A DNA stretch of 57,242 bases, the filler included, from Jimgerdemannia flammicorona (taxonomy: Eukaryota): assembly GCA_003990765.1 (NCBI GenBank). It is 2 parts of 2 records of this genome, joined end to end, with 100 filler letters (N's around TTAATTAATTAA, not from the genome) between each part and the next. Parts side by side here need not be neighbours in the genome. Positions count along the whole stretch, not along the records: positions 1 to 28,576 come from RBNJ01000550.1; 1 more part is not named here. One strand, written 5' to 3'. The notes under the pieces were generated by a model. The model searched no databases. It had not been told where the DNA came from and saw only the letters and a list, made by a program, of their open reading frames with translations. The position numbers were made by a program, and so were the translations under genes. Of this stretch, positions 3,001 to 56,893 are shown piece by piece; within the stretch, counting starts at the first letter, position 1; every line of letters starts with the position of its first letter.

Positions 3001-3747
3001 ATTCAGTCACCAATGTCCAGGTCCATCCTCATTTCCCCCAAACCTCCTCCCTCCAAGCAGCCCCCAGTGATCAGACCATGGACACCATATGACTTCCAGT
3101 GCTGACTAGACATCTGTTCCCCAACACTCTGCCGTTAGAACCCAGTCAATCCTAGAGCCCAGTCCTGCTGCCCAGTGGGTGTACATCTGCCAATCAGCCC
3201 AAAAATGTCTTCCTGAGTCTACTAGAGAACACAACCTCTCCATCTCCAACCAGTCACCCAACCCACCACTTTCACTCCACATGTCTCTCCCTCCATCAGT
3301 TCTGTCCAACTCCTTATCCCATACTATGTTGAAGTCACCCCCCATACAGTCTAACCCAACTTCTCCCAACACACCAGCCTCCTTCAATCTGCAGATCCAT
3401 TCCACTCTCTCCCCTCTCTCAGCTGGGCAGTAACAGGACCCGACTGTCAGCGGGCCCCATCCAGGCCTCTTCCACACTCCCCACACCACTCGAGACCCCC
3501 AATGTCCAATGTTCCCAATGTCCCCCATCTCTTTCTGAACGAGAATACACACTTTTCCCCTCCAAACTGCTGTGCCCCCCCATTCCTTAGTCCAATCCTG
3601 TAAGTCCACATCTGCCTCATAACGAATATCCTGTAGTAAGAAGATGTCTGCATCCAGTCCCTTAAGCCAACCAAAAATATACTTCCTCCTAGCTGACTCC
3701 TATAGCCCATTAACGTTCAATGAGAAAATTCTAGTTGTACTGTTCAT
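53..3747 (-). pseudogene. LINE ORF2: APE endonuclease, reverse transcriptase and C-terminal CCHC zinc finger, disrupted
   Basis: Endonuclease motifs MNSTTRIFSLNVNG, LLQD, GGDFN, SRIDW, SDH. RT motifs PGEDG, WWPIMLLDIDHK, QCGF, LDQEKAYDRV, GVLQGDPLSP, FADN (from FADD). C-terminal CEDC..HWLSEC. Multiple stops and frameshifts; 3' end approximate. Confidence 0.92.
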
Positions 3748-3778
3748 TTTGAAGAAATGTTGCAATAGAGACCCTAAT

Positions 3779-5695
3779 CTATAATTCCATGCTCATCTCA
3801 TCTCCTGCCAGATCCAAGCACCGCTCAGCTTCCACTTCACCCTCAGTATTATCCTGAGCATCCAGTGCTCCTAAGATTTCCTGACATTCCACTCTGTCCA
3901 CTTCCTCCATATCAGCCCTATAGTCTAAGCAGACAGTATGCCACTTCTCCAGTCCCTTCCTCAAATTCCACAAGAAAAATGCTCTGTCACTCACAATCCT
4001 CCTAAGTTCCTCCTCCCTCTGATCATCAACCTGATACTCAACCAACTCCAGGAGGACTGCCAGGATCTCATTCCTCATCTTCCTCGGCACCTCCTCCCTC
4101 CATAGGATCTCCTCCCAATGCTTCTCCTCCAACACCCTGAAGTCCTCACCCCCCAGCTCTTCAGCCGCCACCCCTTCCAAGGTCTTCCACATCCACTTCT
4201 CCTCATCCACTGCCTCCACCGCCCCCTGAGCGATTTGTCCTCCATCCACCTCAGGGTCCACCAGCATACTCCTTCTCACCCGACTCATCCCACTCCTCAT
4301 CTGGCACATCCATCAGCTCCTCCTCTCCCTCTGCCCCATCTGGAACACTATACTGAGGGTACACACCCTCACCCATTTCGGCATCCACCTCCAAATTGCC
4401 CTCCCTCCCCTCCCCACCACCAATCTGAACTCCACCCTGGGCCATCTCTCCCCCCTCAGCCCAGGTGCTCTCCTGTGATCCTGCAACTCCCTCCCCTGAG
4501 CTTCTACCAGCCCCACTCTCACCCAACTTCATCAACAGCTCCTTCTGGATCCTCCTCCCCTGCATCTTTTCCCAGGCCCCCTTTCCATCCAGACCCTCTT
4601 CCCATCCATCTCCCCAACCACCGTCCTGGTCTCAAACTCCTTCCAGGCCAATTTCCTCCTTGCCACTGCCCCTTCCAGAACCTCCAGAGCCTCCAACAGG
4701 TCCTCCTTCTCCTCCGGAGTCCCCTTCACCCTGGTGACCTTACACTCCACCGGTCCCCACCTCAGTGCCGCTGGCCAGTCCCTCGACTTCCCCGTATTCT
4801 CCTTCTCAGCCAGCCTCACCCTGACATTGACATTGCCAGTTCTAAGCTCCGTGCCCTCCCAGACCTTGAACCCAACATCCACAATCTCGCCATACTCCTT
4901 GACCACCTCCACCACCAACTCCCTGGTCCTTTCCTTTGACACCATCAGGAGGTCCAACACCATCAACTGCACCACTCGGGGGTCCCAGTATATGCACCGG
5001 GCCATAGGTACCACAACTCTGCCAACCATCACCCCCTTCTCCATGGCTGCCAACAAGGCATCTTCCTCCTCAAACCCCACCTCAACCCCTTCCTTCCCCC
5101 TCAAGAACTTCACCGATGCTGCTTTCTTAGCCTCCTGTGCCACCAGCTCCAGAATCATCCTCACCATCACTGCCAAGCCCCGGAAGCACATCATGACCAT
5201 GAATTCTGACCTCAACTTCTTGAGTAATGGGGCTGACACCATGCCCATCACCCCATCAGCCAGGTCCCCGGGCCTCGTGTCTACTCCAAGTCATGAATTG
5301 CCACCTGCCATCACATCTGGATTTTTTGCCAGATCCCCAGTCACAGCCCCATCAACAGTCACATCTCCAGCCCCTACTCCGGCCCCTTCCCTACCACCAG
5401 AAGTACCCCGGGGTGTGCCTCCCTGACCCCCAGCAGTAGCCATCGATGCCTTCCCCAGGCCCAGCCAACTATCTAGCCTAGAAGCCATTTTCCCCATTCT
5501 GACCTTGTCAGCAAAGGTCGATCTCGCCTCTCCTCTCTGCCTCAGACCGCCCCTCCCTCCACCACCAGGGTCTCGGCTAGCCATCGAGGCCCCTGGCATC
5601 TCCAAACCATCTCCCCTCCTCCCCACCTGCTGCCAGCCAAAGGCGCCATCACCCCCCTGGCCAGTATGCTCACCAGTTCGATTGTTGCTGTCTAT
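3779..5695 (-). pseudogene. LINE ORF1: Gly-rich N-terminus, RRM-like core, acidic C-terminus; disrupted
   Basis: Track fragments 5291-5626, 4532-5251, 4251-4565 and 3779-4309 are colinear. The YGEIVDV..RTGNVNVRVRL..WP pattern is typical of Tx1/L1 ORF1. The start reads ATA where copy 3 has ATG. Confidence 0.85.
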
Positions 5696-5777
5696 ATTGT
5701 TAGTCGTTGAATACCAAAAACGTTGTAAAAAGTATTGTCTGAGTCTTGTGTCACCCGAATATTACTGGTGAAAGGTG

Positions 5778-11125: not shown

Positions 11126-11446
11126 AATATATATTCAAAAAGACATTTTATATTTAAAATTTATTGTATTGGAGAAGAATCACTAATAATGAATATGTAC
11201 ATAAACATAATGAGAAGATGCATTGTTTTAATTGATCTTACTATATAATTTTTTGCTTACTTTATTGTATATATATTGTCACATATATTATCACTTATAT
11301 CATCACATATATCATTGCATGTATTATTGCATGCTGTTGCAAACTTAGTATCTATTGACTTTTTTTTCTTTTTTAATATTGTACAACTGTATGTTGTCAC
11401 ATAGTATAAACCACTCCCAGTCAGTTCTGAACTCCATTCATCCCAA

Positions 11447-11956
11447 ATGGGTAATATATTTTCGCGCCGACAAGCCCCAAAACGTCCGTCCGGCGAATGC
11501 CCTAAAGATGTGTTATCCCGCTATAGTCCTATGATGGATGTGTATGGTGTGTTCATAGTGCGCTTCATTCAAATGATCCACGACCTCGTCCTTACGAAAA
11601 ACCAAAAACGCTGGGGCAACTTTGTGGTGCTTGACTTGCGATTCAAGAACTCAGAGCCAGGGAAACTGGTGGCGGCCACAGCAAAGAACCCCGCGGACAG
11701 CAAGAGTCGTAAAGAAATGTTATATCTCAAATCCGTGGAGCACAGTGCCTGCGACCGTCTGAACTGGGTAACCTTCTGGGACTTCGTGGAAAACCGATTA
11801 AATGACGTGGAGGAGTTCAACAGATTCAAGCTGGAGTTCAAGACAAGAGTTAATAGAGGCCGGATTAGTGTGGATCACGTCATTACAAAGACACGTCCTT
11901 CAGTCTATTGGCCTTCGAAGGACCCGGAAATGCGCTTGGTTCGCTTTCGGCTCTGA
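11447..11956 (+). CDS. Hypothetical 169-aa protein with N-myristoylation motif (MGNIFS), paralog 1
   Basis: Uninterrupted ORF with CpG retained and TATAAA at 11405-11410. Clear amino-acid similarity to 13347-13877 along its whole length. Confidence 0.8.
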   Translation: MGNIFSRRQAPKRPSGECPKDVLSRYSPMMDVYGVFIVRFIQMIHDLVLTKNQKRWGNFVVLDLRFKNSEPGKLVAATAKNPADSKSRKEMLYLKSVEHSACDRLNWVTFWDFVENRLNDVEEFNRFKLEFKTRVNRGRISVDHVITKTRPSVYWPSKDPEMRLVRFRL

Positions 11957-12210
11957 TTTTACGAATTCAAATGGACTACTTATGCTTACATCCATACTGG
12001 TTGTCCTTATGTATGTCTTATGATCAATCAATAAACTATGAAGCTCTGTCTCGTCCGGCCCTTGGCTATTCTAGGTTGTTCCACAGGCCCTCGATTTGGG
12101 ACGCGTCAATTTTGAGGCACAGAATTACCATCATCATTTTGTTATCTGGATAAAAGACACTCTTCTCCCTCGTGTCATTCATATTCAACGAACGCCATTA
12201 CCAGTCCACC

Positions 12211-12705
12211 ATGGGCAACAATAACTCGCGCCGACGTGCCCCAAAAACACCCCCTGAAGATGAAGTATTGTGCTGTAGCCCGATAATAGCAGAGTATGGT
12301 GTGTTCATAGCCCGCTTCATCCAGATAACCCATGACCGTGTCCTAGCAAGTTTGGGACCGCTTCGTGGTGATTGACTTGCGATTCCCGAACTCAGACCCA
12401 GGGAAACTGGAGGCGGCCACGGTAACGAACCCCATAGACAGTAAGGTTCAAAAAGCTCAAACCCGCGGAACACAGCGCCTGCGACCATCTGGACTGGGCA
12501 GCCTTCTGGAACTTCGTCGAAGAAAAATTAAACGTCGCTGAGGAGTTCAACAGATTCAAGCTGGAGCTCGGGACAAGTGTGAATGGGGGCCGGCTCACTG
12601 AGGATCACGTCATTACAAAGGCACGTCCGTCTGTCTATTGGCCTTCGGAGGGGCCAGAAGTGCGCTTCGTTCTCTTTCAACTGCGGTTTTCACGAGTTCC
12701 AATAG
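12211..12705 (+). pseudogene. Frameshifted paralog 2 of the MGN.. family
   Basis: Pieces MGNNNSRRRAPK..YGVFIARFIQITHDRVLA, SACDHLDWAAFWNFVEEKLN..FNRFKLE and RLTEDHVITKARPSVYWPSEGPEVRFV are split over different frames. Confidence 0.8.
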
Positions 12706-13346
12706 ATTTTTACAGGCTTTACTTATTAATACCATTCAAAGTTATACTTTATAATCAACACACTTTGAACCTCTATGCCTCTATATCTATGAATTCTATT
12801 TGCCTATGTCTATGCCAGGTTTTATGAAAAAGTAGAACAAAGAACAATTGGAGCCTCTACTATTTAAATGTCAATATACTTTACTAATTTATCAAAAATT
12901 ATATATATTATACTAAGTATATATTATTTATAAAGTTTATTAAAATTTCAAAATGTCTCCTCCTTTTCTATCTTATAATGAATGAAATTTAAAGAAGTAT
13001 ATTTTTAATAATTTTGTAAAAAATAAATTCTGATACTTAAAAATCAATATTTATAACCAAGTAAAGCTCAATATATTTTAAAGTTATAAACATCAAAAGT
13101 AAGTTAAAAATTATATTGCAATATGTATCATAGTTATTAAAATAGTCTATATATTGGAATGCATATAATAGTAAAGTTCTATGGTATAATGAATTGACAT
13201 TCAGGTAATAAGAAGTCCTTGGGGGAAATCCTGCATAGACATAGGCTAATCAGACTCATAGACATAGATGTTCTGATTGGATGAATTATAAATAACAAGG
13301 TCTAACAGCATGTATATGTATAACATGAGTGGAGTCTACGAAATGT

Positions 13347-13877
13347 CTATTGAATCTCGTGAAATTGGAGCTGAAAGCGAACTAAACGCATTTCCGGGTC
13401 CTTCGTAGGCCAATATACAGAGGGATGAGCCTTTGTAATGATTTCATCCACACTGAACCGGCCCCTATTTACTATTTTCTCGAGCTCCAGCTTGAATCTG
13501 TTGAATTCCTTGTCGTCGTTAAATCTATCATTGACGAAGTCCCAGAAGGCTGTCCAGTCCAGACGGTCGCAGGCGCTACGCTCCTCCAATTTAAGTTTGT
13601 TTATAACTTCCTTGCGGCTCTTACAGTCCGCGGGGTTTCTTGCTGTGACCGCCACCAGTTTCCCTGGCTCGAAATTCGGGAATCGCATGTCAATCACTAC
13701 GAACCTGCCCCAGCGTTTTCGGTTCTTCGCTAGAACGTGGTCGTGGATTATTTGGATGAAGCGCACTATGAACGCACCATACACCTCCATCATAGGGCTA
13801 CAGCCGGATACTTGATCTTCAGGAGGTGCGCGGGATCTACATGTTGGTGAACTTCGGCGCGAGAATATGTTACCCAT
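13347..13877 (-). CDS. Hypothetical 176-aa protein with N-myristoylation motif (MGNIFS), paralog 3
   Basis: Intact ORF homologous to 11447-11956; TATATAA on the minus strand at ~13933-13939. Confidence 0.82.
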   Translation of the reverse strand: MGNIFSRRSSPTCRSRAPPEDQVSGCSPMMEVYGAFIVRFIQIIHDHVLAKNRKRWGRFVVIDMRFPNFEPGKLVAVTARNPADCKSRKEVINKLKLEERSACDRLDWTAFWDFVNDRFNDDKEFNRFKLELEKIVNRGRFSVDEIITKAHPSVYWPTKDPEMRLVRFQLQFHEIQ

Positions 13878-14401
13878 GGTGAACTGGCTGAAGGGGTTTG
13901 AAGTGAATAGAATTCAAATTTTACTGGGAGGATTATATAGTTGGTCGGGCGTTTTGCATAATAAACCTTTGTTTTTTTTTTTTTAAAAAAAAAATAAAAT
14001 AAAAAAAAAATCATTCCCAGCGGATATTGCTTTCATTTTGGTTCAGTAGATTCTCGATCAAAAACCGTGTTAGGTCAATGTTGCCCTATTTTATTTTTCC
14101 TTTTTACATCGCCGTCCGCATATCACGTTCTCTGCATATATTTCGCGCTCGCGCGCGCCTCTTATATGTATTTTATCCTCGCGCCCCCCTTTATATATTT
14201 TGTTCTTCAACTCCGTGACGCCAATGTCCCATTCCTCACGTGCAATACGCCCAAGTGTCCATATAATGTCGAGGAAGTTAAAAAGTGACTTAACAGTATT
14301 AACTAAGTCGAAAATCTCCCATATTCACTCACTTGATTACTTTTGACTTGATATGACCGGTCATCTGGTTGATATGGCTGATCTGGACTTATCTGGATGC
14401 C

Positions 14402-16510: not shown

Positions 16511-16667
16511 AGTGGTGTGCGGAACCGACCTCAGAACACTTTGGAAATTAATTGAATTGTAAAAAAAAAAAAAAAAGCATTTATGGATAATACTATAGGG
16601 TGTCAGGGGTCTGGGCAAAGTGACTGTTGTAGAGGCACGTGCTCAGAAATCAATGCATCCTAATAAG

Positions 16668-17001
16668 TGTAACTCTACCATTGGCCATTAAAGGAAGAAG
16701 TCCACTGTAAGCTACTACATGCTTAATAATTAAATACATAGAAGCTTTCAGCAGACTTCTTCTGCAAGGATTACTCAGAGAAGTTTACATATCATATGGA
16801 ATTAGCTAGCAAATAGCTGAAACCTATATAAATAAGAAGAGATTAGAAATAGTAATAAAGCAGTTCTGAAATCTTAAATAAGTAAGTGTTTATTGCCAAG
16901 GACTAGATATTCAAGAAATATCTTATACAATAGATCACTTCTCAGACTCTTCAAGTGATTTCTAGATATATTTCTTAGTGAATTCTAGTAAATATATCTA
17001 T
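16668..17001 (+). mobile_element. LTR of family E, interrupted by an LTR of family C
   Basis: Starts TGTAAC, with TATATAAAT at ~16826 and AATAAA at ~16854. It is an inverted copy of ~19765-20089. Confidence 0.7.
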
Positions 17002-19200
17002 TATAATAGTGACCTCAGAATAATAACATCAGTATAGGAGACAGCCTTTCTTATAAGCTACCAGATCAGAAGGAGATCATATGACATAACTCACTCAGAC
17101 TATGAGATGAGTGATGATGACCAACTGAAGTCATTGTGACTACAGTATAGGTATATTGAGAAATATAAAAGAAGAATCAAGGAACTATAGTAGTAGTAAC
17201 TCAATAAGACCCACCAATCTCAAAATAGCTTAAAGACTTACTATAAATGAAATACCTGCTGCTTATTAAATCTCAAGGTCAAGGAACCACCAAGGTCTCT
17301 CAGTTGAAAAAAGGATGTTCCAAGACATCAGAAGAGCTATGAGGACCTATACAAAAAGGACTCCTAGTCTCAACCTGGGTACCAAAAATCCTTATCACTT
17401 TATCCTCTACTGCTGTAAAATGGAAACAAGAATCACCATTGCTACTGAATGCCTCTAAATATAGCAGAAGTATAAAATAGGAAACCTTCTCTACCAGGGG
17501 TTCCCACAGACCAGCTCTCAAGAGTTATAAGATATCACTTCTATAGATATATATGAAATAAGAACAGCTAAGAAGATTTATCAGATCTTCAGACATGTAC
17601 CATAGTTGATCCCCAACTTGGAGTATACTAGAGTCACAGACTTCAGAGATCTGTCAGCCTACTATATTAATACACTAGAAGCCAGAGTGGCAACAGAAGT
17701 CCAGTCCACTATCACTCTTGATAGTAATGAGATAGAAGAGTTCTGGTATCTCATTCTTAAGAACAATCTAGATCAATTCCTATAAAGATTGATCTCTGTA
17801 TTCTAAGGCCCCAGCATCCAGATCAGATCTCCCTAAGACCTTATATTTGTTTCCTATTATATAGAAGAGAACCTCATAGATTAGAGAGTCCCCAATTTCC
17901 CCACTACTGAATATGATGACATTATCAGTAATAATGTCATTCTATGCAATATATGTAAAATATATGATAAAACCAATTTTATCTCCTTCAAAGACATCCT
18001 GACCTCTAATAAAGATAAGGCCTTCATAATCTTAAATATTTTGCTCTAAGTCCCTTAGTTATACTGAATTATGATGGCATTCTTTTCCTGTGTAATAGCT
18101 ATTCCTCCACTGGTATTCTGACCTTATGTGACTCAGAATTATTCCAGCACCCTTTTTCTGTATTATTGAAATTATACCAGCATCCTGAACCTATATAACT
18201 ATCTGTGACTTATTCTACTAGAAAATAATATCTACAACTTCCTTTCTCCCTTCTAAGATCCTCTCACTGACCCTAACATAACTATAGAGAATGCAGAAAA
18301 TAATTTTGCTAGACTCTCTGAAGAAAATAAGAAGAAAGATAAGGATGATATAATCTCTATTATATTGAACTTTAAGATATATAAAGATGACTCTATTAGT
18401 CAAATTTGAATAAGTTAGTGACTACATATTTAAGTAGTCATATTTGGGTTAGTTAGTTAGTTACATAAACAGTGACTGTACTTTAACTAGCCAAATTTAT
18501 CACAAATATAAAACTAGCTTTTTTCAGTTAGTCACTTGAATTCCAAAGTATACTAAATAGTATTCTCTAGTAATTGTGAGTTTTAACCAATTACCCAGCT
18601 TTATATATAGTCTGAAATCTATATAAATACCCCTCTGATCTATAGTGAATAAACCTCAGTCAATTAGTATGTAACACAAGTCAATTAGTTTGTAATACTA
18701 ACTTAAGTTCTGAAAGACAAGAGAAGTCAAGTATAAGAAAAGACTCCAAGAGCTAAAGAAAATCACTCTTGCTACTACTGCTACAGAAATTGGATACAAG
18801 ACCCCAGAATTCAAGATTTAAGATATAAGACCATATTTTTAAAGATATGAGTCAATTGGTTTTACCAACTTAAGTTCTGAAAGACAAGGGAAGTCAAGTA
18901 TAAGAACTTTGAAAAAAGACTCCAAATGCTGCTATAGAAATTTTAATATTAAGAACTATCAAGAATTGCCACCATAGTTAGATAAGAAAATAACTATCAC
19001 TTAGAATACCAAGAACCACTACTACCATGAAAATCAGGTACTAGATCCAGAAACACTTACTAGAAAACTCACCAGAGATACTAAAAAACAATCACCAACT
19101 ATCAGAAAGCTCAGAAAACCTGCAGAAAACATTCTTTGACTATTTCAATATTCTGCTATTCAAAACACCTAGTTATATAACCAATAATCTGTAACATGTG
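17002..19200 (+). mobile_element. Long (~2.2 kb) LTR of family C containing an ORF remnant; 3' end approximate
   Basis: The start tataatagtgacctcagaa is a transition-mutated form of tgtaacggtgaccccagaa at 28187. TATAAAAG at ~17164, TATAAATACCCC at ~18622, AATAAA at ~18648. Confidence 0.7.
17252..18413 (+). pseudogene. LTR-embedded accessory ORF (~385 codons), family C
   Basis: Homologous to 28428-28539 (MSAACQTSRSRNHQG..) and at protein level to 23596-23808 on the minus strand. Read in one frame for the first ~270 codons, with stops explicable by transitions; 3' end approximate. Confidence 0.7.
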
Positions 19201-19654
19201 AATTCCAACCTGATATAAGAAATATAAATAAATTGAAGAGTAGTTTAACTGAAAATTGAGCCAGAACATTGTTAGTAAAGATATTAATAGTCTATATATA
19301 TAATTAGTAGCACCATTGAGTTATATATATCAGTATCTATTAGTAACCAAATCTATACAAATTATATACCACAATATATACTTAGAGAATTATTAGATCT
19401 TATTTAACTATTAACTAAGTTTATAGTATAGTATATTAGATATCTTTCTAATTATTAATAGAGTTTATAATCTATATTATAAATAATTATAAACTAAATA
19501 GAAGAAGTAATTTTATTAATAATATAAAGTAATATATTTTATATATTACTATTAATAATATAATATACAAGTTATTTAATAATATATTATATAGATAATA
19601 AGTTGTAAATCAATATTATATATATTAGTAGCTTAGTTCAATTTATATAACAGT

Positions 19655-22600
19655 TATGAGAGTTCTATAAAAAAATTTGATTACTAGGAAATTAGTCAAT
19701 AAAAGAAGTAAGTTATAGGAGTATATAAGAGTAGTTTGTAGAAGAAATTACTGAGAATATACAGATATATTTACTAAGAAATCTATTAAGAAATATATAT
19801 ATCTAGAGATTACTGAGAATGTTTGAAAAGTAATCTATTATATAAGATATTTCTTAGATATCTAATTCTTAATAATATATACTTACTTATTCAAGATTTC
19901 AGAACTGTTTATTACTATTCTCAACCTCTTCTTATTTATATATTTGCTAGCTAATTTTATTATAATATATAAACTTCTCTGAGTAATTTTTATAAAAAAA
20001 GTCTACTAAGAGTTTTTATATACTTAATTATTAAGTATATATTAGCTCACAGTAGACTTCTTTCATTAATAGTCAATTATAGAGTTATATAAGAATTTTT
20101 CTTATTAAGATATATTGATTTCTGAATATACATATATCTCTATATTCATATTTCTTTATTTTGATATATCTATCTCTTAATTGATTAATTATAGATATTA
20201 TTATATAATAAGAATGAGAGCTAGTAGAAGACATCAGATAGAAAATATCTGTAAGTAGAAAAGCTATAGATTATTTAGTAGAATCTCAGGAGTCTATAAT
20301 CTATAAGTAATATAAGTATAGTAGTTATAAGGATTTAACTATCAAATTCTGCCAATTTTTAATCAAGTACTATAAATTTATAAAGAGCTCTAATAAGCTC
20401 CCATCAGTACTTAGGAACCTAAGAATAATCTTAATAGAAATAGTATCTGTAATGTACCAGCTTACTATATTTAGAACTATATATTATATATATTATAGAT
20501 CTTTCTCAGATATTCTCCAACTAGTGGAAAATTATTCTCTTATAATCTATAAGATCCTGATTGAGATTCATTTATACTGCTACTCAATATATTTAGCAAT
20601 TTATTGATATAGAGTAAAGAATATATATTTTTGATAGTTGCTAGATTGAGCTTATAGAAATTATTACAATACTATAGATTTCTATCCTTCTTATCAATAA
20701 TGACCACCAGTGAGGTCTAGAGGCTTACTGACTATTAAATTATAATAAGTATTATTAGTTTGCATAGTTTTTCTAATATGAACTTCTTTTTTTTTAAGCT
20801 GAGCCTATATTCTTTTTGATAAATTGAAATAGTATTATGTATCAGTATAAATATAATATTATATAAGAGTACTATACTCAAACTCTTCTATCTTATTAAT
20901 GAATAGAGTATTATTCAATATAAGAATGAGAGTATTAAGTTGGTCTTTTCTAAGATCTAGACTAATTATTAATATAGTAATACTTGGGTACTGATTTCTT
21001 CACTATTATCTCTTATATATAAGGTATTATTCAATCTACTATCTTCATTAATATTCTCAACTCATACTTACTAGGTACTAGTCTGAACTGATATATTATT
21101 ATTATTATTCAAAATTAGACATATAGTATTTAAGTAGATATTTACTTCTCTGGATTAAAATTAAGCCATTCTGACTAAAATTATTACTAGTAAGTATCTA
21201 GAAATACTATTATATCAAATCTATACTTCTTGGTACCAATTTTCATTTTGAGACTTTTTATTATATCTAGGAGTATAGAGCCCCATTCACTATATTTATA
21301 ACTAGATTGGTGAGCTTGATGACATATTCTATTTTTTTGACAATATATTCTCGAATATAGTTCTCTAATATATAAGTATCAAAGATCACTCTCTAGATAT
21401 CTATTTCTATATTATTATATAGGACTATAGTTGGCTTCATAATAGTAGTAGTACCTATAATTATAGTTTTTTTATAAGTTATAGATTCTATAATAGAGTT
21501 TATAATGAGTTTTATAGATATTATATCTCTTTATAACTCTTACTTGAGTTTCTTATAAGTAAGCAGTAAAAGTGCTAGAAGTTGTCCATAAGTAATACTA
21601 GTATTAATATTTAGAAGAAAGACTGCAAATAAGTGGAGATCTTTATTATTCATCATCTTAATTATTCTATACTTCTAGTAGTTTTTAGACTTTTTTTTAG
21701 AGATGATGGTAAAAGATTAAATATTTAAGCAATCAATAGTTCTATCTTACTTACTTCTTCTATCTATTTTTTTTATCTATTAGTTCTATCATATATTTAT
21801 AGTCTCACTAGTTATAGTTGTAACTATATCTCTTATCTTATATATTCTTCTTCTTAATAGATCATAACAGATGTTCTTTATAATTAGATTAGTTGGATAA
21901 GCCTCAGTTTGATCCCTGAGTTCTTCTTTACTAATATCTACATAGTTAGTAGCAAATTACTAGAATATAGAGATCATTTGAACTGAGATATTATTACTAT
22001 ATATTAGTTATAAAACTTTAATTATTATCTTGGTAGTAGGATGAGCAATGTTTTATAATATATATATCTAATATTATTATATTTGCAATATTTTTATAAA
22101 GTAGTAGAGATATACTATTATTATATTTAAACTATTATATATATATTCTATTATTAATTTGTTATATATTATTATTTATTATTATATTAATAATCTTCTT
22201 TATGAGCTCTATCAGATTATCATTACTGGAGGAGATTGTATAAGCTATATGTATATTGACTATAGAGTTCTGACTTTATATTAGTTGGACTATAAAGGGA
22301 TTCAGTTTAGATATAGTATTATAAGAGTTTATTAATAGATTCTAGACAGTAAAGAGTATAGTAAGTCTTGGAACAAATATTATCAGTCAGTTTATTTCTA
22401 TTTAGCTTGTATAATCTTACTATACTCTCTGAGTGGTAGTAAGTATGTTGTCAAAGATTTCGATTTATATTTTATTATATTTTACTTCTATATAGATATA
22501 ATTTATTATTATAAGATATACTCTTTTATCTCTTATACTTAATACTATAGAGAGCATAATTCTTCTTTATATAGATTCAGAATACTTTTGGAGTCTCTTC

Positions 22601-23110
22601 TGGTCCTATCTATATGATACTAAATAGGTTGGCAATATATTCTTAATTTCTGATAAAATATTAAATGATCTAATCCTTAAGTATATTATAAGTAATCTGA
22701 GCTAAGTTGGCAAGAGTGACAAGAGACTACTATTAATAGAACTATAGTTATGATATCTTAGATAAACTCTGAGACTTCTTCTTAAAGATAAATATGTAGA
22801 GTATCTACTTACTTATTATTATTATAGATCTATTATTCAACTATATAGATTTCTAAGTTCTCAAAGAACTTGAGGATATTTTTATTATAGATATCAGTAT
22901 AGTATATAGAGATTTTATATGATATATATATTTCTTAGATATAAGTATAGTATAAATTTTTAATATTGAGTAAAATAAGATTCCTCAACATTTTCACCAA
23001 TGTGAGGTTTTTATAAAGAAATTTGATTGTTAGGAAATTAGTCAATAATAGAAATATATTATAGAAATAAATAAGAATAGTTTATAGAAGAAAATTATTA
23101 AAAATATATA
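19655..23110 (-). mobile_element. Extremely degenerate, internally deleted Ty3/gypsy element, family E
   Basis: 3' LTR at 19655-20089; the remnant 5' LTR at 23001-23110 repeats 19655-19770. PBS-like TGGTGAAAATGTTGAGGAATC at 22979-22999 is tRNA-Ala-like after reverting transitions. RT N-terminal remnant (FYKLNLATIKNIYSLLYINKLL) at ~20590-20700. Confidence 0.65.
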
Positions 23111-23111
23111 G

Positions 23112-24372
23112 TATTATATAGTGGTTGCTAAATTCTTCAAATATATCAGATTCTCTTTAAAGTATATCTCTTAGACTAACTCAAGTTTGTTATAAGTAAG
23201 TTAAACTTCTTATCTTTAAACTGTCTTGTTATCTCTTAGATTGCTTATATGGAATTGAGGGTAAATAAACTAGAACTGACTTTATTTTGAAGGAAATAAG
23301 AGGGGTATTTATATAAAATATAATTTAATAGTTGCTAAGATATAAAGCTAAATATAAATTCCAATAACTAAATAAAATACTGGAACACAGAAAACTGCCA
23401 AGTTCCAGTGTTAGAGATTATCATTATTCTTCAAGTTGTCTAGGGTGATATCATTCTGCTCTTGAGGTCTCCAGTCAATAGTGAGGTTATCTATAAAGTA
23501 GGAAATATCTGTAGAGTTCTGAGAGTAGTAGATTATCAGAGAAGAGTCTTGAAATAGTACAATTAGACTATGAAGAAATTGGTCTGGATTGTCCTCTAAA
23601 ATAGAGTTCCAAAGATCTTGAACTTTATCACTCTAGTAGATTGGACCTCCTTGGCAACCATTTTCTCAAGGTGGTCTATATGATGGCTTCTTAATTCTTG
23701 AATATCAGAGACCTTAATATACTCAAGATTGGAAATAGTCCAGGCACATATATATAAATTGAAGATCTGGTGGACTCTTCTGGCTAGTTTTTGCTCATAT
23801 TTGTCCATACATATAGTATCTTCAATTTCTTGAAAGCTGGTCTATGAGAACTCTTAGCAGAGATGATGTTCTATTTTATATTCTTACTATATCCAGAGAC
23901 ACTTAGTGGTAGTAGTGATTCTTGTCTCCATTTTCTAGTAGTTGAGAATATAGTAATAGGGGTCTCTTATATAGAGGTTTAGACTAGGAATCCTTCTTAT
24001 ATATAGCCTCATTACTTTCTTAATATCAGTGAACATTTATTCTTGAACTGATGGACCTGAGTAGCTCCTTGACCTTACTATTTGGCAGATAGCAGATATT
24101 TTGTTTTGTAGTAAGTTTTGTAATTGATGTCTTATCCTCTTTCTCTTGATGATTCTTTTATATATTGAGGGTCTGCTCCTTTAGTCCAGAGTATAGAGTT
24201 ATCTAACATGAGTAGTATACTGCTGGGATCATTATGAGTCATCATGAGTTTGGTTGTAGATCATCTTATGATCAAGATGAGTTACAGTTGAGTTATAACT
24301 TATAACTGGTGGCTTGCTAAGCCTAAGCAGTCTTCAGATTCTGATGTCACTAGTTTTAAAAATATCATTACA
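23112..24372 (-). repeat. 3' LTR of element D with an embedded ORF remnant (~24099 to ~23400)
   Basis: TATAAAAG at ~24160, ORF piece 23596-23808, then TATAAATACCCCTC at ~23300-23313 and AATAAA at ~23281-23286. Lower boundary approximate. Confidence 0.72.
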
Positions 24373-27860: not shown

Positions 27861-28186
27861 GGTTAAAGGTCCTGGTAGTTCTAGGGCAGAGTATTGTCTG
27901 ATAGGAGAGATAGAGATTATAATCTACTGATCCTTTTGTTTATACAAGAGGAGGTTGTGCCCAGGATGATAATAGCTTTACTTGAATAATTGGCTGAGTC
28001 TTGAGGAATGATGTCCCAGTGGTTACTACTATAGAAGAGAACTCCATACATTCTAACTTGAAGAATTACCAATATACTTTAGTCTTTGGATTCCTTATAT
28101 AGTTGAATCCAGTTCTTCCAAGTTAGTCTAAGGCTTCTATAAAGGTGAAGACAAGATTGACTCCTTGTTTGTCTTAGTGTGGCTAG

Positions 28187-28536
28187 TGTAACGGTGACCC
28201 CAGAATGATGATATCAGCACAGAAATAGCCTTTCTTTACAAGCCACCAGATCAGAGTACAAGAAGATTATACAGCATATGAGATGAGAAATGATGACCAA
28301 CTGTGAGTCATTGTGACCACAGCACAAGCATCCTGAAGAATATAAAAGAAGGATCAAGGAACCACAGTAGCAGCAACCAACAAGAACCCCCAATCCCAAA
28401 ATAGCTCAAAGACTTACTACAAATAAAATGTCTGCTGCTTGTCAAACCTCAAGGTCAAGGAATCATCAAGGTATCTCGGTTGAGGAAAGGATGTTCCAAG
28501 ACATCAGAAGAGCCATGAGGACCCACTCAAGAAGGA

Positions 28537-28539
<3 letters not shown>
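28187..28539 (+). mobile_element. 5' part of a younger family C LTR, cut by a poly(A) tail at the contig end
   Basis: TGTAAC start, TATAAAAG at ~28341, ORF ATG at 28428. Direct repeat of 17002-17363. Confidence 0.82.
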
Positions 28540-28576: not shown

Positions 28577-28676
28577 NNNNNNNNNNNNNNNNNNNNNNNN
28601 NNNNNNNNNNNNNNNNNNNNTTAATTAATTAANNNNNNNNNNNNNNNNNNNNNNNNNNNNNNNNNNNNNNNNNNNN
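28577..28676. other. Artificial assembly spacer N44-TTAATTAATTAA-N44
   Basis: Exactly 100 nt; the central 12-mer gives stop codons in all six frames. Confidence 0.97.
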
Positions 28677-31600
28677 AGCCTCGCCACCAGATATTCAAAA
28701 TGTCCAACAGCAACCATTCCCAATGGGCCACCTTGTCACCAACCCCGACCCGCCACCCTTCTTCAAAGACATGAACCCAGTGCCCAGCCAACCCAACCCA
28801 CATAGCCAAAGCCCAACTAAGGGTCAGTCATTCATCCCCAACCCCACCCACCAGTCTCTGGCGAAGCTCTCCCCATCTCCCCCCTCCCTCTCCCTCTATA
28901 GCATCCAGCCCCACCTGGTCCATAATACATCTCCAGAACTCCTCCAAAACCTCACATTCACCAAGCCAATGTTCAGGCATTTGTATCACTCCACCCTCCT
29001 GACCAATGTTGAAACAATCCTCACACTCGAATATCCCACCGGCCACCAAGTATCCTGACCAATAGTTCAACATCACATTCCTCCATAGGACCTACCACCA
29101 CACCACCCAGAACTTGGGGGGCAGCCACTGCCTCACCTATTTGCTCCAACACCAGAGGCCATTCCAATCCCACTCCTCACCAATTCCAACCCTCTGCCAG
29201 GCTTCTGGCTACAGGTCTCCACCCAGGCCTCGCAGATACTCCAGACCCTCGCCAAGCTGAAAGTTCTCCACCGGAATGCCACCCAGTAGAAGCCTGTCCC
29301 ACCACCACATCCGCAGGTCCCAAACCTCCTCAGCTTCATCACCTTGCCACCAAAGTCCAATTTTCTTAGCACCATCTACCACCCCCCACCAAAAGCCCAT
29401 AAACCACATCCTCCTGCTCCCCTCCATGGCCACCATTGCGAGCAAGTCACTGGAACCACCACATGGGGAGTACTGAACCTCCCACAATCTCTGCATGAGT
29501 GGCACCCACTCTCGACCCCAAAGCTCACTCGCCCTTCACAGCCACCAGGCTCTCAGACAAAGAAGCCGCTTAGTAAAGTCCACTAAACCCAGCCCACCTC
29601 TCTCCAAGGGCAGTGTGAGCACCTCCCAACCAACCTGGCTTCACTGCCCTCTCCAGATCCATGACCTTGCCATCTTCAACAGCCTCTTGACCACTCAGGC
29701 TGGAAAGTCCAAGTAATATCTAACATACCACAGCTTCGGCATCCAGTATACATTCAACACCATCACCCTCCCGGCTAGGGACATATGCCAGCCTCTCCAA
29801 TGTAGCAAAACATTACCCCACTCCAGAAGTTTATGGTCCCACCATGCCCAGGGAAGAAGAGATCCAAACACCGAGAAGTAGATCTCCAAGTAATATACCA
29901 GTTCACCAGCTGGTACCACTGTCCCAATGATATCGCCACCAACAATTCCAGTGCCCAGCACCAGTGTCTCACATTTGTGCCAGTTTGGCTTAGCACCAGA
30001 ACCCCTCTCATACTATTCCACAGTCCTCTGTAACTCTCTCACATCCACCAAGGAGCCCAGCCCGACCACCATATTATCAGTAAAGGCCCCCACCTTCCAG
30101 TTAACCCCTAAAATGTCCAAACCTCCAATCTGATACTGAATTCTGTCCAGTAGTGGCTCCAGAGAAAGGGCATACAAAATGGGCAACAAGGGGTCTCCTT
30201 GTAGTACCCCACATCTCAGGGGAAAGGTCACCCCTCTGTGGCCATTGATGACCAATGCCACCTGACTATCCTCCAAGAGGCTGATCAATGATCCTCGGAA
30301 CCCCGGAGGAGTACCAATCCACTTCAGCACACCCTCTAGCCATATTCTCCGCACTCTATCATAAGCCTTCTCTTGGTTCAGAAACACCAATCGGCCATCC
30401 ACCCCTACTGCCCGGGTACCTTCAATCACTCCATGAACCCAGGCTGTCCCATCTTGAATCAACTGACCACTGACAAACCCACACTGTTCTACACCAAGCA
30501 CCTGCTGGGTGATTCCTTGCAGTCTCAACACCAAAATTTTCATCACCAGTTTGCGGTCTATATCAAGAAGCATAATTGGCTACCAGTTCTTCCAGTCCTC
30601 TCGTCTCCCCTTATTCTTATAGAGCAAGGAGACTAGCCCTAAGCGCTGTCCCCCAATCCAAACACCAGACCAAAGAACTCTATTGCACATAGCCATCATT
30701 TCCTCAAGCACCTCACCTACCCCAGTCATCTTCTGTCAAAAATCCCAGGGAAGTTCATCCTCTCCCGGGGCTGTCCCCTTACTCGTCGAGGCCACAATCC
30801 TGCAAATTTCCTCACCACTCACTGGGTCCCCCAATGCCCCAAGTCCCAACGCAGGGTTTGGGTGCCAATCCCCCAGCTGCCTTTCAACATCCAGAGCATC
30901 CAATTCTCCTTCCTCCTCACTCCAAAGATGCTTCTACCGGGTTCGCAATAGTCCTAGAATTGCCGGAGTCCCCACCATCAGCTCGCCATCTGCATCCAAA
31001 ACTCCCTCCCACCGCTTCCTTGTTTGTCATGCTTGTAACAACTGTGACAGGAACCTAGTTGGCCTCTCTCCCTCCTCAAGCCCCTGCCACCACAGGCGGG
31101 CCACTATTTCCTACAACTGCTCCTTCTCCTCCCTTCGTAGCACCCCTTTAAGCTCCTCTACCTCCTGCCAGATCCTTACTATATGCCAATCAGTCACATC
31201 CCCATCCTCCAGCACACCTGCCCATCTTTCCATAAGTGCTGCCAGATGCCGTAAGGCCCACTACACCCACCGCCTGTGCTGGGTATATTTCTCTTTCCCA
31301 GCTTCCCTCCAATACCCCTGAGCATTTGCCTTCAGTCTTCTCCAGCAGTCCCCAATCGCCAGTCCTTGTTCCTGCCACCTGCCAATATTACCCACCACCT
31401 CTGCTTCCCAACCCTCCCACAATACCCTATCCTCTAACAAGGAAGAATTTAGCTGCCAATGTCCAGGCCCATCCTCATTTCCCCCAAACCTCCCTCCTCC
31501 AAGTAGCCCCCAGTGATCAGACCATAGATACCATACAACTTCCAGCCCCGACCAGACATCTGCTCCCCAACACTCCGCTGTTAGAACCCAATCAATCCTG

Positions 31601-32193
31601 GAGCCCAACCCTGCTGCTCAATGGGTGTACACCCACCGATCAGCCCAAAAATGTCTCTCCGAGTCCACTAGAGAACTCAACCTCTTCATCTCCAATCAGT
31701 CACCCAACCCACCACTCTCACCCCGCATGCCTCTCCCACCATCAGTTCTGTCCAACTTCTTATCCTGTACTATATTGAAGTCACCCCCCAAACAGTCCAG
31801 TCCAACTCCTCCCAATACACCAGCCTCATTTAATTGACAAATCCAATCCACCCTCTCCCCTCTCTCAGCTGGGCAGTAATAAGACCCAACCATCAGCAGG
31901 CCCCATCCAGGCCTCTTCCACACTCTCCACACCACCCAAGATGCCCAATGTCCAATGTCCCCAATGTCCCCCATCCCTTTCCAAACAAGAATACACACTT
32001 TCCCCCTCCAAACTGCTGCACCCCCCCATTTCTTAGTCCAATCCTGTAAGTCCACATCTGCCTCATAACGAACATCCTGCAATAAAAAGAGGTCTGCATC
32101 CAGTCTCTTAAGCTAACCGAAAAAATACTTCCTCCTAGCCACCCCCTGTAACCCATTAATATTCAGCTAGAATATCCTAGTTGTACTATTCAT
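28677..32193 (-). pseudogene. LINE ORF2 (endonuclease-RT-CCHC), disrupted
   Basis: ATG at 32193. Motifs LLQDVR, GGDFN, SRIDW, SDH, LNQEKAYDRV, QGDPL, FTDN and CEDC..HWLGEC. Confidence 0.9.
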
Positions 32194-32224
32194 AATGAAG
32201 AAATGTTGCAACCAAGACCCCAAC

Positions 32225-34133
32225 CTATAATTCCATGCTCATCTCATCTCCTGCCAGATCCAAGTGCCATTCAGCTTCCAAGTCACCTTCTGCAATATCC
32301 TGAGCATCCAGTGCCCCCAAGATTTCCTGACATTCCACCCTGTCCACTTCCTCCATATCCACCCGGTAGTCCAAGCAGACTGCATGCCACTTTGCCAGTC
32401 CCTTCCTTGAGTTCCACAAGAAAGTGCCCTGTCACTTGCAATCTTCCTAAGTTCCTCCTCCTGCTGACCATCAACTTGATATTCGACCAGGAGGACAGCT
32501 AGGATCTCATTCCTCATCTTCCTTGGCACCTCCTCCCCCTATAGAATCTCCTCCCAGTGCCTCTCCTCCATCACCTGGAAGTCCTCACCCCCTAGCTCTT
32601 CAGCCGCTACCCCTTCCAGGGTCTTCTACATCCACTTCTCCTCATCCACCACCTCTGCCACACCTTGAGCGATTTGTCCCCCATCTACCTCAGGGTCCAC
32701 CAGCATGCTCCTCCTTACTGACTCATCCCACTCTTCATCCGGCACATCCATCAGCTCCTCCTCCCCCTCTGCTCCATCCGGAACACTATACTGAGGGTGC
32801 ACACCCTCCCCCATTTCGGCATCTGCTTTCAAATTGCCCTCCCTCTCCTCCCCCACTCCAATCTGAGCCCCACCCTGGGCCCTCTCTCCCCCCTCAGCCC
32901 AGGCACTCTCCTGCAACCCTGCAACTCCCTCCCCTGAGCTTCCACCAGCCCTACTCCCACTCAACTTCGCCAACAGCTCCTTCTGGATCTGCCTCCCCTG
33001 CATCTTCTCCCAGGCCCCCTTCTCCATCTGGACCCTCTACCCATCCACCTCCCCCACTACTGTCCTGGCCTCAAACTCCTTCCAGGCCAATCTCCTCCTT
33101 GCAACTGCCCCTTCCAGATCCTCCAGAGCCTTCAACAGGTCCTCCTCCTCCTCCTGGGTCCCCTTCACCCTTGCGACCTTACACTCCACCAGTCCCCATC
33201 TCAACATTGCTGGCCAGTCCCTTGACTTCCCCGTATTCTTCTTCCCAGCCAGCCTCACCCTGACATCAACATCACCAGTTTGAAGCTCCATTCCCTCCCA
33301 GACCTTGAATCCAATATTGACAATATCGCCATACTCCTGGATTGCCACCACAACCAACTCCCTGGTCCTCTCCTTCGATATGGTAGGGAGATCCAACACT
33401 GTCAACTGCACTACTCATGGGTCCCAGCACATGCACCAGGCCATAGGGACTACAACCCCTCCAACCATCAACCCCTTCTCTATGGCTGCCAACAAGGCAT
33501 CTTCCTCCTCAAACCCCACCTCAACCCCTTCCTTTCCCCTCAAAAACTTCACCGACGCCGCTCCCTTAGCCTCCTGCACCACCAGCCCCAAAATCATCCT
33601 TGCCATCACTGCCAAGCCCCAGAAGCACATTGTGACCACAATTCTGACCTCGACTTCTTGAGTAATGGGGCCGACACCATGCCCATCACCCCATCTGCCA
33701 GGTCTCTGGGCCTCATGCCCCCGCCCAGTCCCAAATTGCCAACCACTATCACATCTGGATTTTTTGCCAGATCTCCAGTCACAGCCCCATCAACAGTCAC
33801 ATCTCCAGCCCCTACTTCCACTCCTCCCCTGCCACCTGAGACTCCCTTAGATGCACCTCCCTGTCCCCCAGTAGCAGCTGTCGATGCCATCCCCAGGCCC
33901 AGCCAACCATCAAGGCCTGAGGCCATCTTGCCCATTCTGACCTTGTCAGCAAAGGTCAACCTCTCCCCTCCTCTCTGCCTCAGCCTGTCCCTCCCTCCAC
34001 CACCAGGACCTCGGCTAGCCATCGAGGCCTCCAGCATCCCCAAACCATCTTCCCTCCTTCCCACCTGCTGCCAGCCAAAGGCACTGTCACCCCCCTGGCC
34101 AGTACGCTCACCAGTTCAATCATTGCCATCCAT
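32225..34133 (-). pseudogene. LINE ORF1, disrupted
   Basis: ATG at 34133; fragments are homologous to copy 1 ORF1 and end in EMSMEL*. Confidence 0.85.
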
Positions 34134-34215
34134 GTTGCTAGTCGCTAAATACTGAAAACATAGTAAAAAGTGTTGTCTGAGTCTTGTGTCACCCAAATGT
34201 TACTGGTGAAAGATG

Positions 34216-35651
34216 ATTATATAGGGTTTCATCTATCTGCTGATTTCATTAGAGTACTTCTTTTTTTGAATGAAGTCTGTCTCACTTGTTGCAGATATAG
34301 AGGTCAAATTGTCCTTATACATCAGGTTCAATTCTCTCCAGATTTTTAGATAGTTCAGGATAAATTCTAGTTCAGAGGTTGGGCTTTATATCAACTTGTA
34401 GGAATTCTTAAAAGAGTTTGTAGCAGGGTGAGAAAGCATCTTGAAGTAGAATTAGATTGTAAACTGCTACTACTAAGTTGTAAGAGAGTTACCTTGTTAG
34501 AGTAACTGTTATAGTTCTGGAAGGTTTTCTGAAAGTTCTAGATATTCTGAAAGATTATTTTCTTAAGGTCAAGATCAATTTCATATGGAGTACATTCTCT
34601 ATACTTATTGATTTTAAGATCAGGTTAACATCTCAACCAAAGTCCTTTTTCAGACTAGTTCTGGAGGTTCAGGATTTTTCATATTTCAGGAAGTTCAAGA
34701 AACTAAGACCAGCTTAGTTGAATCAGCATATCACTGTAGACAATACCCAATTAGGAAATTTCATGATAGAGTTAAGAGTGGGATCTAATGGGGAGTAGAT
34801 TTACTTAAGAGTGATTTGTGGGTTATTAAATAGGTTTATTCACTATTTATGATATTGCTATACTAGGAGTAGTTGTATAAAGGGATATTGTAAGAAAGTG
34901 TTCAGGAATTATATTTGAATTGTTCAAGTCTTCAAGTCTGAGATTCTGAGATCTGGGAGAGAGGGTAGTTATACTAGTAAAGGGCTATCTGAACTAGGCT
35001 AGATATGGATGTAGCACTTAGTACTTTGCTGAGTTGGAATGCAGTCATATAGTACAAGTGTGATCTGATATATCAAGAGATTGTCTGACTACTGAGTCAG
35101 TTTACAGTTATATTACATAAGACTAATCTAACTATACTATAACTGCTAAGCTGTCTATAAATTTAGATGCTGTCTGGATAGTCTTTGATGATATCACCAT
35201 CAATGACATTATCTCTGATGAAGTAGTTATCTAGGAAAAGTTGTTCACAGATTAATTCTCCTTATTTACTAAGATAATAATATATTAGAACTTTGTCACC
35301 ATTCTACAGAATAGTATTATCTGTCTTATATACTGGATAAGGAGTTGGTGAGTGAAGGAGAGGTACATCATCTTCACTTTTATCAGATTTGCTATCTGTA
35401 TACCTTCTATAGATAATGGTACTATAAGTTGTAGAGTTGTAGTATGCTGGTAGTTGTGCTTCATGTTGTTCATATTCTGGTGGTAGAGTTATTGGTTCAA
35501 TCTCAAGGATTGTTTGAAGGTATAGATTGTGTTCTCTAGTCTCTTCATTATAGTTGAAGTAATCAAGAGTGAACATAGATTGGTACTTGAGCTAGTGGTC
35601 ATTGTCCCAATAGGTCTCATAGGTAGTTATGAACTTTTGTAAGTTCATCAG
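34216..35651 (-). mobile_element. Family A LTR retrotransposon fragment A1 (partial LTR 34397-35651, PBS, leader)
   Basis: Reverse complement of ~36555-37895 and ~53235-54640. Confidence 0.85.
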
Positions 35652-42954: not shown

Positions 42955-43020
<66 letters not shown>

Positions 43021-43042
43021 GTTACTTGGACTCTGTCTTTAT

Positions 43043-47166: not shown

Positions 47167-47196
47167 AATGAAATACAATTTATTACCAGTTGATCT

Positions 47197-49221: not shown

Positions 49222-49471
49222 ATTGTTAGTCTCTTTTCTCTAAAAACAATATTGTAAGTGCCTTCCAAAGGTTGTGTAACCTGAATTATACTAGAGAAAG
49301 ATGTCCTACTAATGCTGGGTAGTTGGTAAGTCTTGATGTGATTACTTCTCTTTCTATCCAAATGCTGATGATAACTGGTTCTTCTGTAGTAACAGAGATT
49401 GGTATTGTATCAAATATATCCAGTTTGACTGTGGGTTCTTGTGAGCTGAAAAGTCACATTGATTTGAAATC

Positions 49472-49489
49472 TTCCCAGTTGAGCCCCCA
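49472..49489 (-). promoter_or_regulatory. Primer-binding site, tRNA-Pro-like
   Basis: TGGGGGCTCAACTGGGAA lies 2 nt after the LTR end GTTACA and resembles the canonical PBS-Pro TGGGGGCTCGTCCGGGAT. Confidence 0.75.
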
Positions 49490-49491
49490 AA

Positions 49492-50640: not shown

Positions 50641-50649
50641 TTATTCCCT

Positions 50650-51900: not shown

Positions 51901-51904
51901 ATTC

Positions 51905-54465: not shown

Positions 54466-54489
54466 AGTTGGTATAAAGCCCAACCTCTG

Positions 54490-56830: not shown

Positions 56831-56893
56831 GGCCCCAGCTAGTGCTCCGCAAACCCGACCCGATTAACCCGAAACCCGACCCGTAAAACAGCC

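Follow-up and report, generated by a model that had tools for sequence, protein, structure and literature searches.

The window analysed here, a stretch of 57,242 nucleotides (nt) of Jimgerdemannia flammicorona DNA (assembly GCA_003990765.1) in which parts of two records are joined by filler letters, is a eukaryotic transposon graveyard. Our subject is a repeat in it that begins at position 17002 and is treated below as a long terminal repeat (LTR) of family C. Copy Ci of this repeat contains the decayed remains of an open reading frame (ORF), and a second LTR family in the same window, family A, contains the remains of another. The family C copies and the features within and beside them are as follows, with positions counted along the window.

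17002 to 18740, plus strand: family C LTR copy Ci, with a firm 5' end (TGT, now TAT) and an approximate 3' end, between 18665 and 18740
17252 to 18049, plus strand: decayed C accessory ORF in Ci, 265 codons and a stop codon (18047 to 18049), with its ATG changed to ATA, nine internal stops and no frameshift
18622 to 18656, plus strand: putative core promoter of the C LTR together with its poly(A) motif, with TATAAATACCCC at 18622 to 18633 and ATAGTGAATAAACCT at 18642 to 18656
18741 to 19654, plus strand: sequence 3' of the C LTR in which, by eye only, a leader and the beginning of gag may lie, without a Pfam match
23190 to 24372, minus strand: family C LTR copy Ciii, inverted and lacking about 550 nt that Ci has
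23432 to 24099, minus strand: C ORF of Ciii, decayed, in which one frameshift and six or more stops are found
28143 to 24500, minus strand: Ty3/Gypsy fragment E2, with a dUTPase (about 27942 to 27633), reverse transcriptase (RT), RNase H (about 26362 to 25981) and an integrase zinc finger (about 25641)
28172 to 28539, plus strand: family C LTR copy Cii, the first 368 nt only, cut by the poly(A) tail of a minus-strand long interspersed nuclear element (LINE)
28428 to 28538, plus strand: remnant of the C ORF in Cii, with the ATG kept at 28428

Organization of the family C repeats

Ci, Cii and Ciii share the same 5' boundary base and have different DNA upstream of it, which bears out the start at 17002 given in the original prediction. 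The initial TGTAA is present in Cii and Ciii and has decayed to TATAA in Ci. Ciii lies directly after the integrase of a minus-strand Gypsy pol, with a purine-rich 12-mer, ACAAGAGGCAGA (24384 to 24373), before it, so that RT, RNase H and integrase are upstream of this copy and on its strand; there is no pol upstream of Ci or of Cii. A common 5' base, differing upstream DNA and a copy that follows integrase together form the pattern expected of an LTR. At the other end, the similarity between Ci and Ciii fades beyond about 18740, and a direct repeat (18673 to 18739 and 18844 to 18906) lies around the C LTR end. Ci is dead, C-to-T and G-to-A changes having erased every CpG: the ratio of observed to expected CpG is 0.000 across 17002 to 19763, compared with 0.036 in the A copies and a normal 1.06 at 12 to 15 kb.

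Ci is itself flanked exactly by an inverted repeat of about 360 bp, X, with a TATA..AATAAA module in each arm.

16643 to 17001, plus strand: X+, left arm, beside Ci, with its own TATA..AATAAA module
19764 to 20125, minus strand: X-, right arm, 92.7% identical to X+ in purine/pyrimidine code

The arms resemble one end of a further LTR that occurs here in two copies pointing towards each other, and no target-site duplication was seen around them (16643 to 17001 and 19764 to 20125). The interval from 16643 to 20125 was also considered as a DNA transposon with 360-bp terminal inverted repeats, and this was not adopted since X is missing beside the C units at 28172 and 24372. In addition, a segment at 23001 to 23111 that adjoins the inverted C copy is a 110-nt direct copy of 19655 to 19764 (95.5% identical in purine/pyrimidine code).

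A decayed gene and its intact relatives

The reading frame in Ci was originally drawn from 17252 to 18413, an interval of 387 codons that is not open but interrupted by 17 stops; the ORF proper runs only to 18046, and the 122 codons beyond it hold eight stops in addition to the nine internal ones. Its extent is given by intact proteins found elsewhere. The read-through of 17312 to 17953 matches three of these among 32 candidates (E values of 1.7e-86, 6.3e-77 and 1.0e-61), and the intact relatives, 215 to 342 amino acids (aa) long, align end to end and free of frameshifts with 17252 to 18046, so that the true C ORF is one of 265 codons. In tblastn comparisons with the Ci ORF, residues 1 to 271 of protein P0002 (E 5e-96) and residues 1 to 247 of P0001 (E 3e-95) are matched. 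The Ciii ORF aligns with residues 1 to 153 and 158 to 229 of P0002 (E 1.2e-54) and is 46% identical to that of Ci over 157 aa (E 3e-37).

All nine stops within the Ci ORF fall at glutamine (Q) or tryptophan (W) positions of the intact relatives, and the frame of the window copies has been lost through Q- or W-to-stop transitions only. A ciliate-type genetic code as the cause of the stops was rejected, since TGA occurs in other frames of the interval too and the stops of the ORF stand at Q and W codons of the intact relatives.

The set of C-type sequences consists of nine database proteins (P0001 to P0003 and P0005 to P0010) and one frame on a metagenome contig, L001, all of them 138 to 342 aa long and sharing conserved blocks; the relatives keep open frames at mutual identities of 28 to 80%. 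A search of 1,835,955,588 proteins with a C-profile hidden Markov model (HMM) returned five members (E values from 3.5e-152 to 4.2e-11). The L001 frame, an intact ORF of 291 codons, was found at one locus in a scan with P0007, and a metagenome scan with the C alignment gave 81 pattern matches, none of them confirmed. L001 carries the LTR-start motif of the C repeat, TGACCCC, 234 nt upstream of its ORF. A motif of about 25 nt (TCAGGCGGAAC..TCAGAACA) is present in two copies flanking the L001 ORF, at 170 to 205 and 1470 to 1500, and a frame that is open at the 5' end of the contig stops at the TGA of the LTR-start motif.

Transversions relative to L001 are fewest at codon position 2 (0.21, against 0.29 and 0.33 at the other positions; p=0.008 and 0.011). 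These comparisons support a real, once-selected coding gene beneath the decayed C ORF, and place it by sequence in a small orphan protein family with intact members elsewhere. That there is no functional gene, and that the frames are products of chance or of gene callers run on repeats, is highly improbable. Such a view could appeal to the lack of a known domain, to structure models that are poor (predicted local distance difference test, pLDDT, 34.7 with three sequences and 46.3 with nine), to relatives that come from short contigs and to the absence of a codon bias between Ci and Ciii, but it is at odds with conserved blocks that persist in nine C-type proteins and the L001 frame down to 28% identity, and with the loss of the frame in the window copies by a single class of change.

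Family A carries a different gene

Family A is represented by three copies; the Ty3/Gypsy fragment E1 is listed with them.

52370 to 54118, plus strand: family A LTR copy A2, with both ends approximate, a possible TGTAAG start and a TGG-type site resembling a primer-binding site at about 54119
52968 to 53723, plus strand: decayed A accessory ORF in A2, 250 codons (52968 to 53720), with three stops
53897 to 54028, plus strand: A2 TATA box TATAAATACCCC at 53897 and poly(A) motif ATAGTAAATAAACCT at 54014
54180 to 55655, plus strand: near-open long frame 3' of the A2 LTR, gag-like by eye, with one to two stops per 100 codons
35660 to 38918, plus strand: family A copy A1, LTR and gag-like frame, with the ORF from 36282 to about 37035, a TATA box at 37147 and a poly(A) motif at 37273
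34221 to 35653, minus strand: family A copy A3, partial and inverted, with ORF residues 89 to 247 at 35648 to 35166
42900 to 39003, minus strand: Ty3/Gypsy fragment E1, with gag, protease and dUTPase

The A ORF has one intact relative, P0004 (247 aa, E 1.9e-90), of which residues 5 to 247 are 62% identical to the A2 ORF (E 5e-100); two scans of viral contigs, one of them with P0004, gave nothing that was confirmed. A1 and A2 are 84 to 86% identical in DNA and 97.5 to 98% identical in purine/pyrimidine code, and almost all of their decay therefore consists of transitions. As with family C, the evidence supports a once-selected protein-coding gene within the terminal repeat.

The A units continue beyond the TGG-type site into the gag-like frame and end without CA, and they are therefore composed of a 5' LTR, a leader and part of gag, and are not bare LTRs. 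Similarity of the gag-like frame to the gag of E1 is weak (Smith-Waterman score 55, z 2.3, reached by 10 of 300 shuffles). A1 and A2 both end at the same base within the gag-like frame (38918/38919 and 55655/55656), with unrelated DNA rightwards; to the right of one of these ends lies the dUTPase end of the oppositely oriented E1.

Position of the genes within the repeats

Two motifs are common to the families. TATAAATACCCC is present exactly four times in the window, in Ci, Ciii (23313 to 23302), A1 and A2, where 0.55 occurrences are expected and none of 100 shuffles reaches four. ATAGTGAATAAACCT is exact in Ci, A1 and A3, has one change in A2 and has two changes in an occurrence upstream of the E1 gag; the expected count is 0.35, and five occurrences were reached in 0 of 100 shuffles. 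By these cis motifs the A and C LTRs are related to each other.

In each of Ci, Ciii, A1, A2 and A3 the ORF is followed downstream by a TATA box and an AATAAA motif, and in both families the ORF sits between the 5' end of the repeat and these motifs. The order is that of a sag-type gene, with the C repeat starting at 17002, its ORF at 17252 to 18049 and its TATA box at 18622, and the A2 repeat starting at about 52370, its ORF at 52968 to 53723 and its TATA box at 53897. In C, about 250 nt separate the LTR start from the ORF, and about 570 nt lie between the end of the ORF and the TATA box. If that TATA box is the promoter, an ORF upstream of it would be located in the unique 3' (U3) region of the LTR, and we infer the U3 assignment and the promoter role together.

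An alternative is that the ORF is not in the LTR proper and is an internal gene beside it, either before gag or 3' of integrase, the units being element ends. Several features are compatible with this: the A units run into a gag-like frame and end without CA, the 3' ends of the LTRs are not fixed, and Ciii stays similar to Ci past the poly(A) motif. There are also parallels in extra ORFs upstream of gag, as described for Retrosat2 (PMC3485330), and in the 'additional ORFs' that a figure legend in PMC2864245 assigns to fungal Gypsy elements. An internal gene would nevertheless have to account for a C ORF that directly follows integrase in Ciii and has no pol upstream of it in Ci and Cii, with the same start base in all three copies, and for an ORF upstream of the TATA box in every copy, which would be U3 if that box is the promoter. 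We consider the internal location improbable.

The reading that we favour, and regard as somewhat probable, is that Ci holds a real accessory gene in the U3 of an LTR, not detectably related to the gene of family A. The sequence from 17002 onward would be an LTR of about 1.7 kb from a Ty3/Gypsy retrotransposon with a dUTPase in pol, and its U3 would hold the wreck of a 265-codon accessory gene (17252 to 18046). Family A would be an LTR related to it, which shares its TATA and poly(A) motifs and has another orphan gene, of 250 codons, at the equivalent place. The U3 of a 3' LTR is present in every element transcript, and the gene could therefore be expressed from the 3' end of the RNA, probably by way of a subgenomic or spliced mRNA, as with the sag gene of mouse mammary tumour virus (MMTV).

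Some observations tell against the U3 gene. The 3' end of the C LTR, a primer-binding site and a target-site duplication were not found, and there is no complete element with two LTRs within the window. The codon-position test against L001 rests on a protein-guided alignment, which favours such a bias, and the comparison of Ci with Ciii has no codon-position bias (p=0.42). On L001 no purine-rich DNA precedes the LTR-start motif, and the motif is entered by an open frame. The intact relatives lie on contigs of 0.9 to 4.8 kb without context, and the position within an element is visible for L001 only, and there on the 5' side only.

Taken broadly, the idea of a gene-in-LTR system put forward in the original prediction holds: the A and C LTR families carry once-selected genes at the same position, with intact relatives, a shared layout and two shared motifs. 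The arrangement is a genuine one, of modest novelty.

No detectable relationship between the A and C proteins

A protein homology between the two families had been proposed from an ungapped alignment of 42 residues. Both peptides are present, that of C at 17552 to 17677 and that of A at 52881 to 53006 in A2, but the A peptide had been written with two of its stops replaced by W and R. The 11 identities are as reported for C against A2, and there are nine against the other A copy (36195 to 36320). The preceding YKIGNLL (17471) and YQISCLL (36123 and 52809) were found as described, but a gap of three codons is needed to join them to the 42-mer. The claim that the two ORFs are of about the same length is correct for the true ORFs, at 265 codons for C and 250 for A.

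The alignment itself is due to chance. At least 11 identities occur in the best 42-residue window in 123 of 300 shuffles of C, and six-frame BLASTP of C against A did not return it at E<=100. The A/C Smith-Waterman score of 51 compares with a shuffle mean of 39.2 (standard deviation 6.2) and is reached by 18 of 300 shuffles; the other A copy scores 30, below the shuffle mean. The A peptide is moreover off-register, since 29 of its 42 residues lie upstream of the first methionine (Met1) of P0004, and the alignment therefore pairs C residues 101 to 142 with A positions -29 to +13.

Comparisons that use the intact proteins give no support to the homology either. For profile-profile comparison the original prediction had named the lack of a significant score as a refutation of the homology, and this is the outcome: hhalign gave a probability of 1.06% when close alignments were used and of 0.17% when C was represented by its alignment of nine sequences. 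BLASTP between the two protein types has a best E value of 0.39, with Smith-Waterman scores reached by 101, 29 and 33 of 500 shuffles; no A-type protein was found in the C-profile HMM search of 1.84 billion proteins; and tblastn of P0001 to P0003 on the A copies gave no match at E<=10. By these measures the A and C proteins have no detectable relationship.

The two genes could still be truly homologous: positional orthologues that go back to a single U3 gene and whose sequences have diverged past detection. They are matched in position, each lying downstream of the LTR start and upstream of the TATA and poly(A) motifs that the families have in common, in LTRs that are themselves related; their lengths are similar; both products are acidic, strongly so in the last 60 residues; and they share a short look-alike patch, PxF[IV]..YF[IV]..[DN][VL]ID (also given as YF.[DE][DN].ID). 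A precedent exists in ORF0 of Retrosat2 and its relatives, whose position is kept at about 10% protein similarity according to the account in PMC3485330, and this keeps the homology reading alive, as unlikely but worth carrying forward. Apart from the negative comparisons above and the chance-level, off-register alignment, it has to contend with distant C relatives in which the patch is missing and PYMDGPNRIRW stands in its place, and with a distance from LTR start to ORF of about 250 nt in C as against about 600 nt in A.

Protein features and possible function

The C-family proteins are acidic, with isoelectric points of 4.1 to 5.9 (4.1 to 4.9 for eight of the nine). Their last 60 residues have a net charge of -6 to -16, and the first 40 residues of P0002, the longest form, one of +8; P0004, of the A type, is acidic throughout. 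In the C model residues 47 to 149 form a helical core at pLDDT 53 to 74, followed by a disordered tail. Members of the family combine an N-terminus that is basic with a core that is helical, and their tail, strongly acidic, has short hydrophobic motifs.

Any function proposed for these proteins has to be set against searches that gave no lead or only faint ones. No Pfam family was matched at E<=1 by the ten intact proteins or by the window frames, and sequence searches of the PDB gave no match at E<=1. In a fold search with the better C model, 0 of 48,161 PDB chains reached Z>=5 (best Z 4.0), and BFVD gave no match at E<=0.001 with the same model; the best feature score for P0002 in the ESM Atlas was 0.83, with TM scores of at most 0.33, and these are leads only.

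The C protein might be a nuclear regulator of the element's own expression, acting on transcription, RNA export or counter-silencing; this is a tentative guess, and unlikely to be right as it stands. The helical DNA-binding or transactivator role that was first suggested is likewise a guess. A wider scenario, which we think distinctly unlikely, is that related Ty3/Gypsy lineages keep a U3 'slot' for a fast-evolving accessory gene. In it, the A and C genes would be positional homologues that go back to a single regulator, basic at its N-terminus, helical in its core and acidic in its tail, which would raise the element's own transcription or RNA export or weaken host silencing. If true, LTR retrotransposons outside animals would possess accessory genes in the manner of retroviruses. 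If the A and C proteins govern element expression or silencing, they would count as novel participants in the contest of genome and transposon, and as novel tools.

Other elements in the window

The Ty3/Gypsy assignment of E2 (minus strand, 28143 to 24500) follows from its pol order of RT, RNase H and integrase. Pfam matches were obtained for RT_RNaseH (4.4e-26), dUTPase (6.3e-07) and Integrase_H2C2 (2.9e-04), and RT was identified by reading. The dUTPases of E1 and E2 share only 33% identity over 131 aa, and the two fragments therefore belong to different lineages. That they are two halves of one element was rejected, each having a full dUTPase with this low identity.

The non-LTR component of the window consists of three LINE copies.

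250 to 5777, 28683 to 34215 and 42988 to 49300, all minus strand: LINE copies with endonuclease and RT domains, which are not LTRs

Their sense strand is strongly G-rich (plus-strand GC skew of about -0.45 to -0.5 at a GC content of 0.52), two of the three are 85.6% identical to each other, and LINE poly(A) tails abut 28540 and about 42960. Two runs of 44 N's (28577 to 28620 and 28633 to 28676) lie just beyond a LINE poly(A) tail.

The minus strand from 49300 to 52369 is very decayed and contains a module, TATAAAATACCCC...AGAGTAAATAAACCT, at 50529 to 50495, beyond which a long stretch is open. This region probably represents the 5' LTR and leader of E1, parted from the E1 gag by a LINE, and no A-type or C-type ORF was detected in it. 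Among the remaining sequences we note a family of open frames of about 180 aa within 11405 to 13913 (11405 to 11953 and 12438 to 12824, plus strand; 13350 to 13913, minus strand), arranged as direct and inverted repeats with 73 to 79% DNA identity, an observed/expected CpG ratio of 1.06 and no Pfam match. At the right end of the window (56892 to 57081), units of about 66 nt are repeated in tandem, with 97.6% identity in purine/pyrimidine code.

Comparison with known systems

Accessory genes are a hallmark of complex retroviruses. In foamy viruses (tas/bet) and human immunodeficiency virus (nef), 3' accessory genes run into the 3' LTR and overlap U3, and foamy-virus Tas has an acidic activation domain at its C-terminus. 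To our knowledge such genes are known only sporadically in LTR retrotransposons, as with CERV and ORF0. Searches of the literature for an ORF inside a fungal Gypsy LTR found none, which does not prove that none is in print. The window appears to add two related LTR families, each with a domain-less U3 gene that is open among its relatives, and suggests that LTR elements can host regulatory genes in the one region that ends up at both termini of the element and that each RNA includes at its 3' end.

The nearest likeness in layout is to MMTV sag. According to the account in PMC9147501, sag is an accessory ORF that lies in a long LTR, inside its U3 or overlapping it, and its expression is from the 3' end of the RNA. 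The C and A genes resemble it as accessory ORFs in the U3 of an unusually long LTR. They differ in that there is no sequence relationship to Sag, with no Pfam match at E<=1 and no PDB sequence match at E<=1, in that the host is not a vertebrate, and in that the element is Ty3/Gypsy and has no env in the window.

A second comparison is with CERV of the Caenorhabditis elegans Ty3/Gypsy element Cer1, presented in PMC10309623 as a domain-less nuclear protein needed for export of Cer1 RNA. Both it and the C protein are lineage-specific accessory proteins without known domains, and CERV offers a model for how the C protein might act, an export role being a guess; similarity between CERV and the C ORF has been compared through domain searches only.

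In rice, the elements Retrosat2, RIRE3 and RIRE8 are described in PMC3485330 as having LTRs of about 3 kb and an extra ORF, ORF0, that lies after the 5' LTR and before gag, and as conserving the position of ORF0 while its sequence is very divergent between families (about 10% similarity). The likeness is that of an extra ORF without an assigned function in Gypsy elements with long LTRs; the differences are that ORF0 lies outside the LTR and in plant elements.

Among fungal Ty3/Gypsy elements, PMC2864245 places the dUTPase of some, such as PosPlaTy3-5 of Postia placenta, between protease and RT, as it is placed in E1 and E2; this agrees with a host among the fungi without being proof of it. A figure legend in the same source lists elements with an 'additional ORF with unknown function'.

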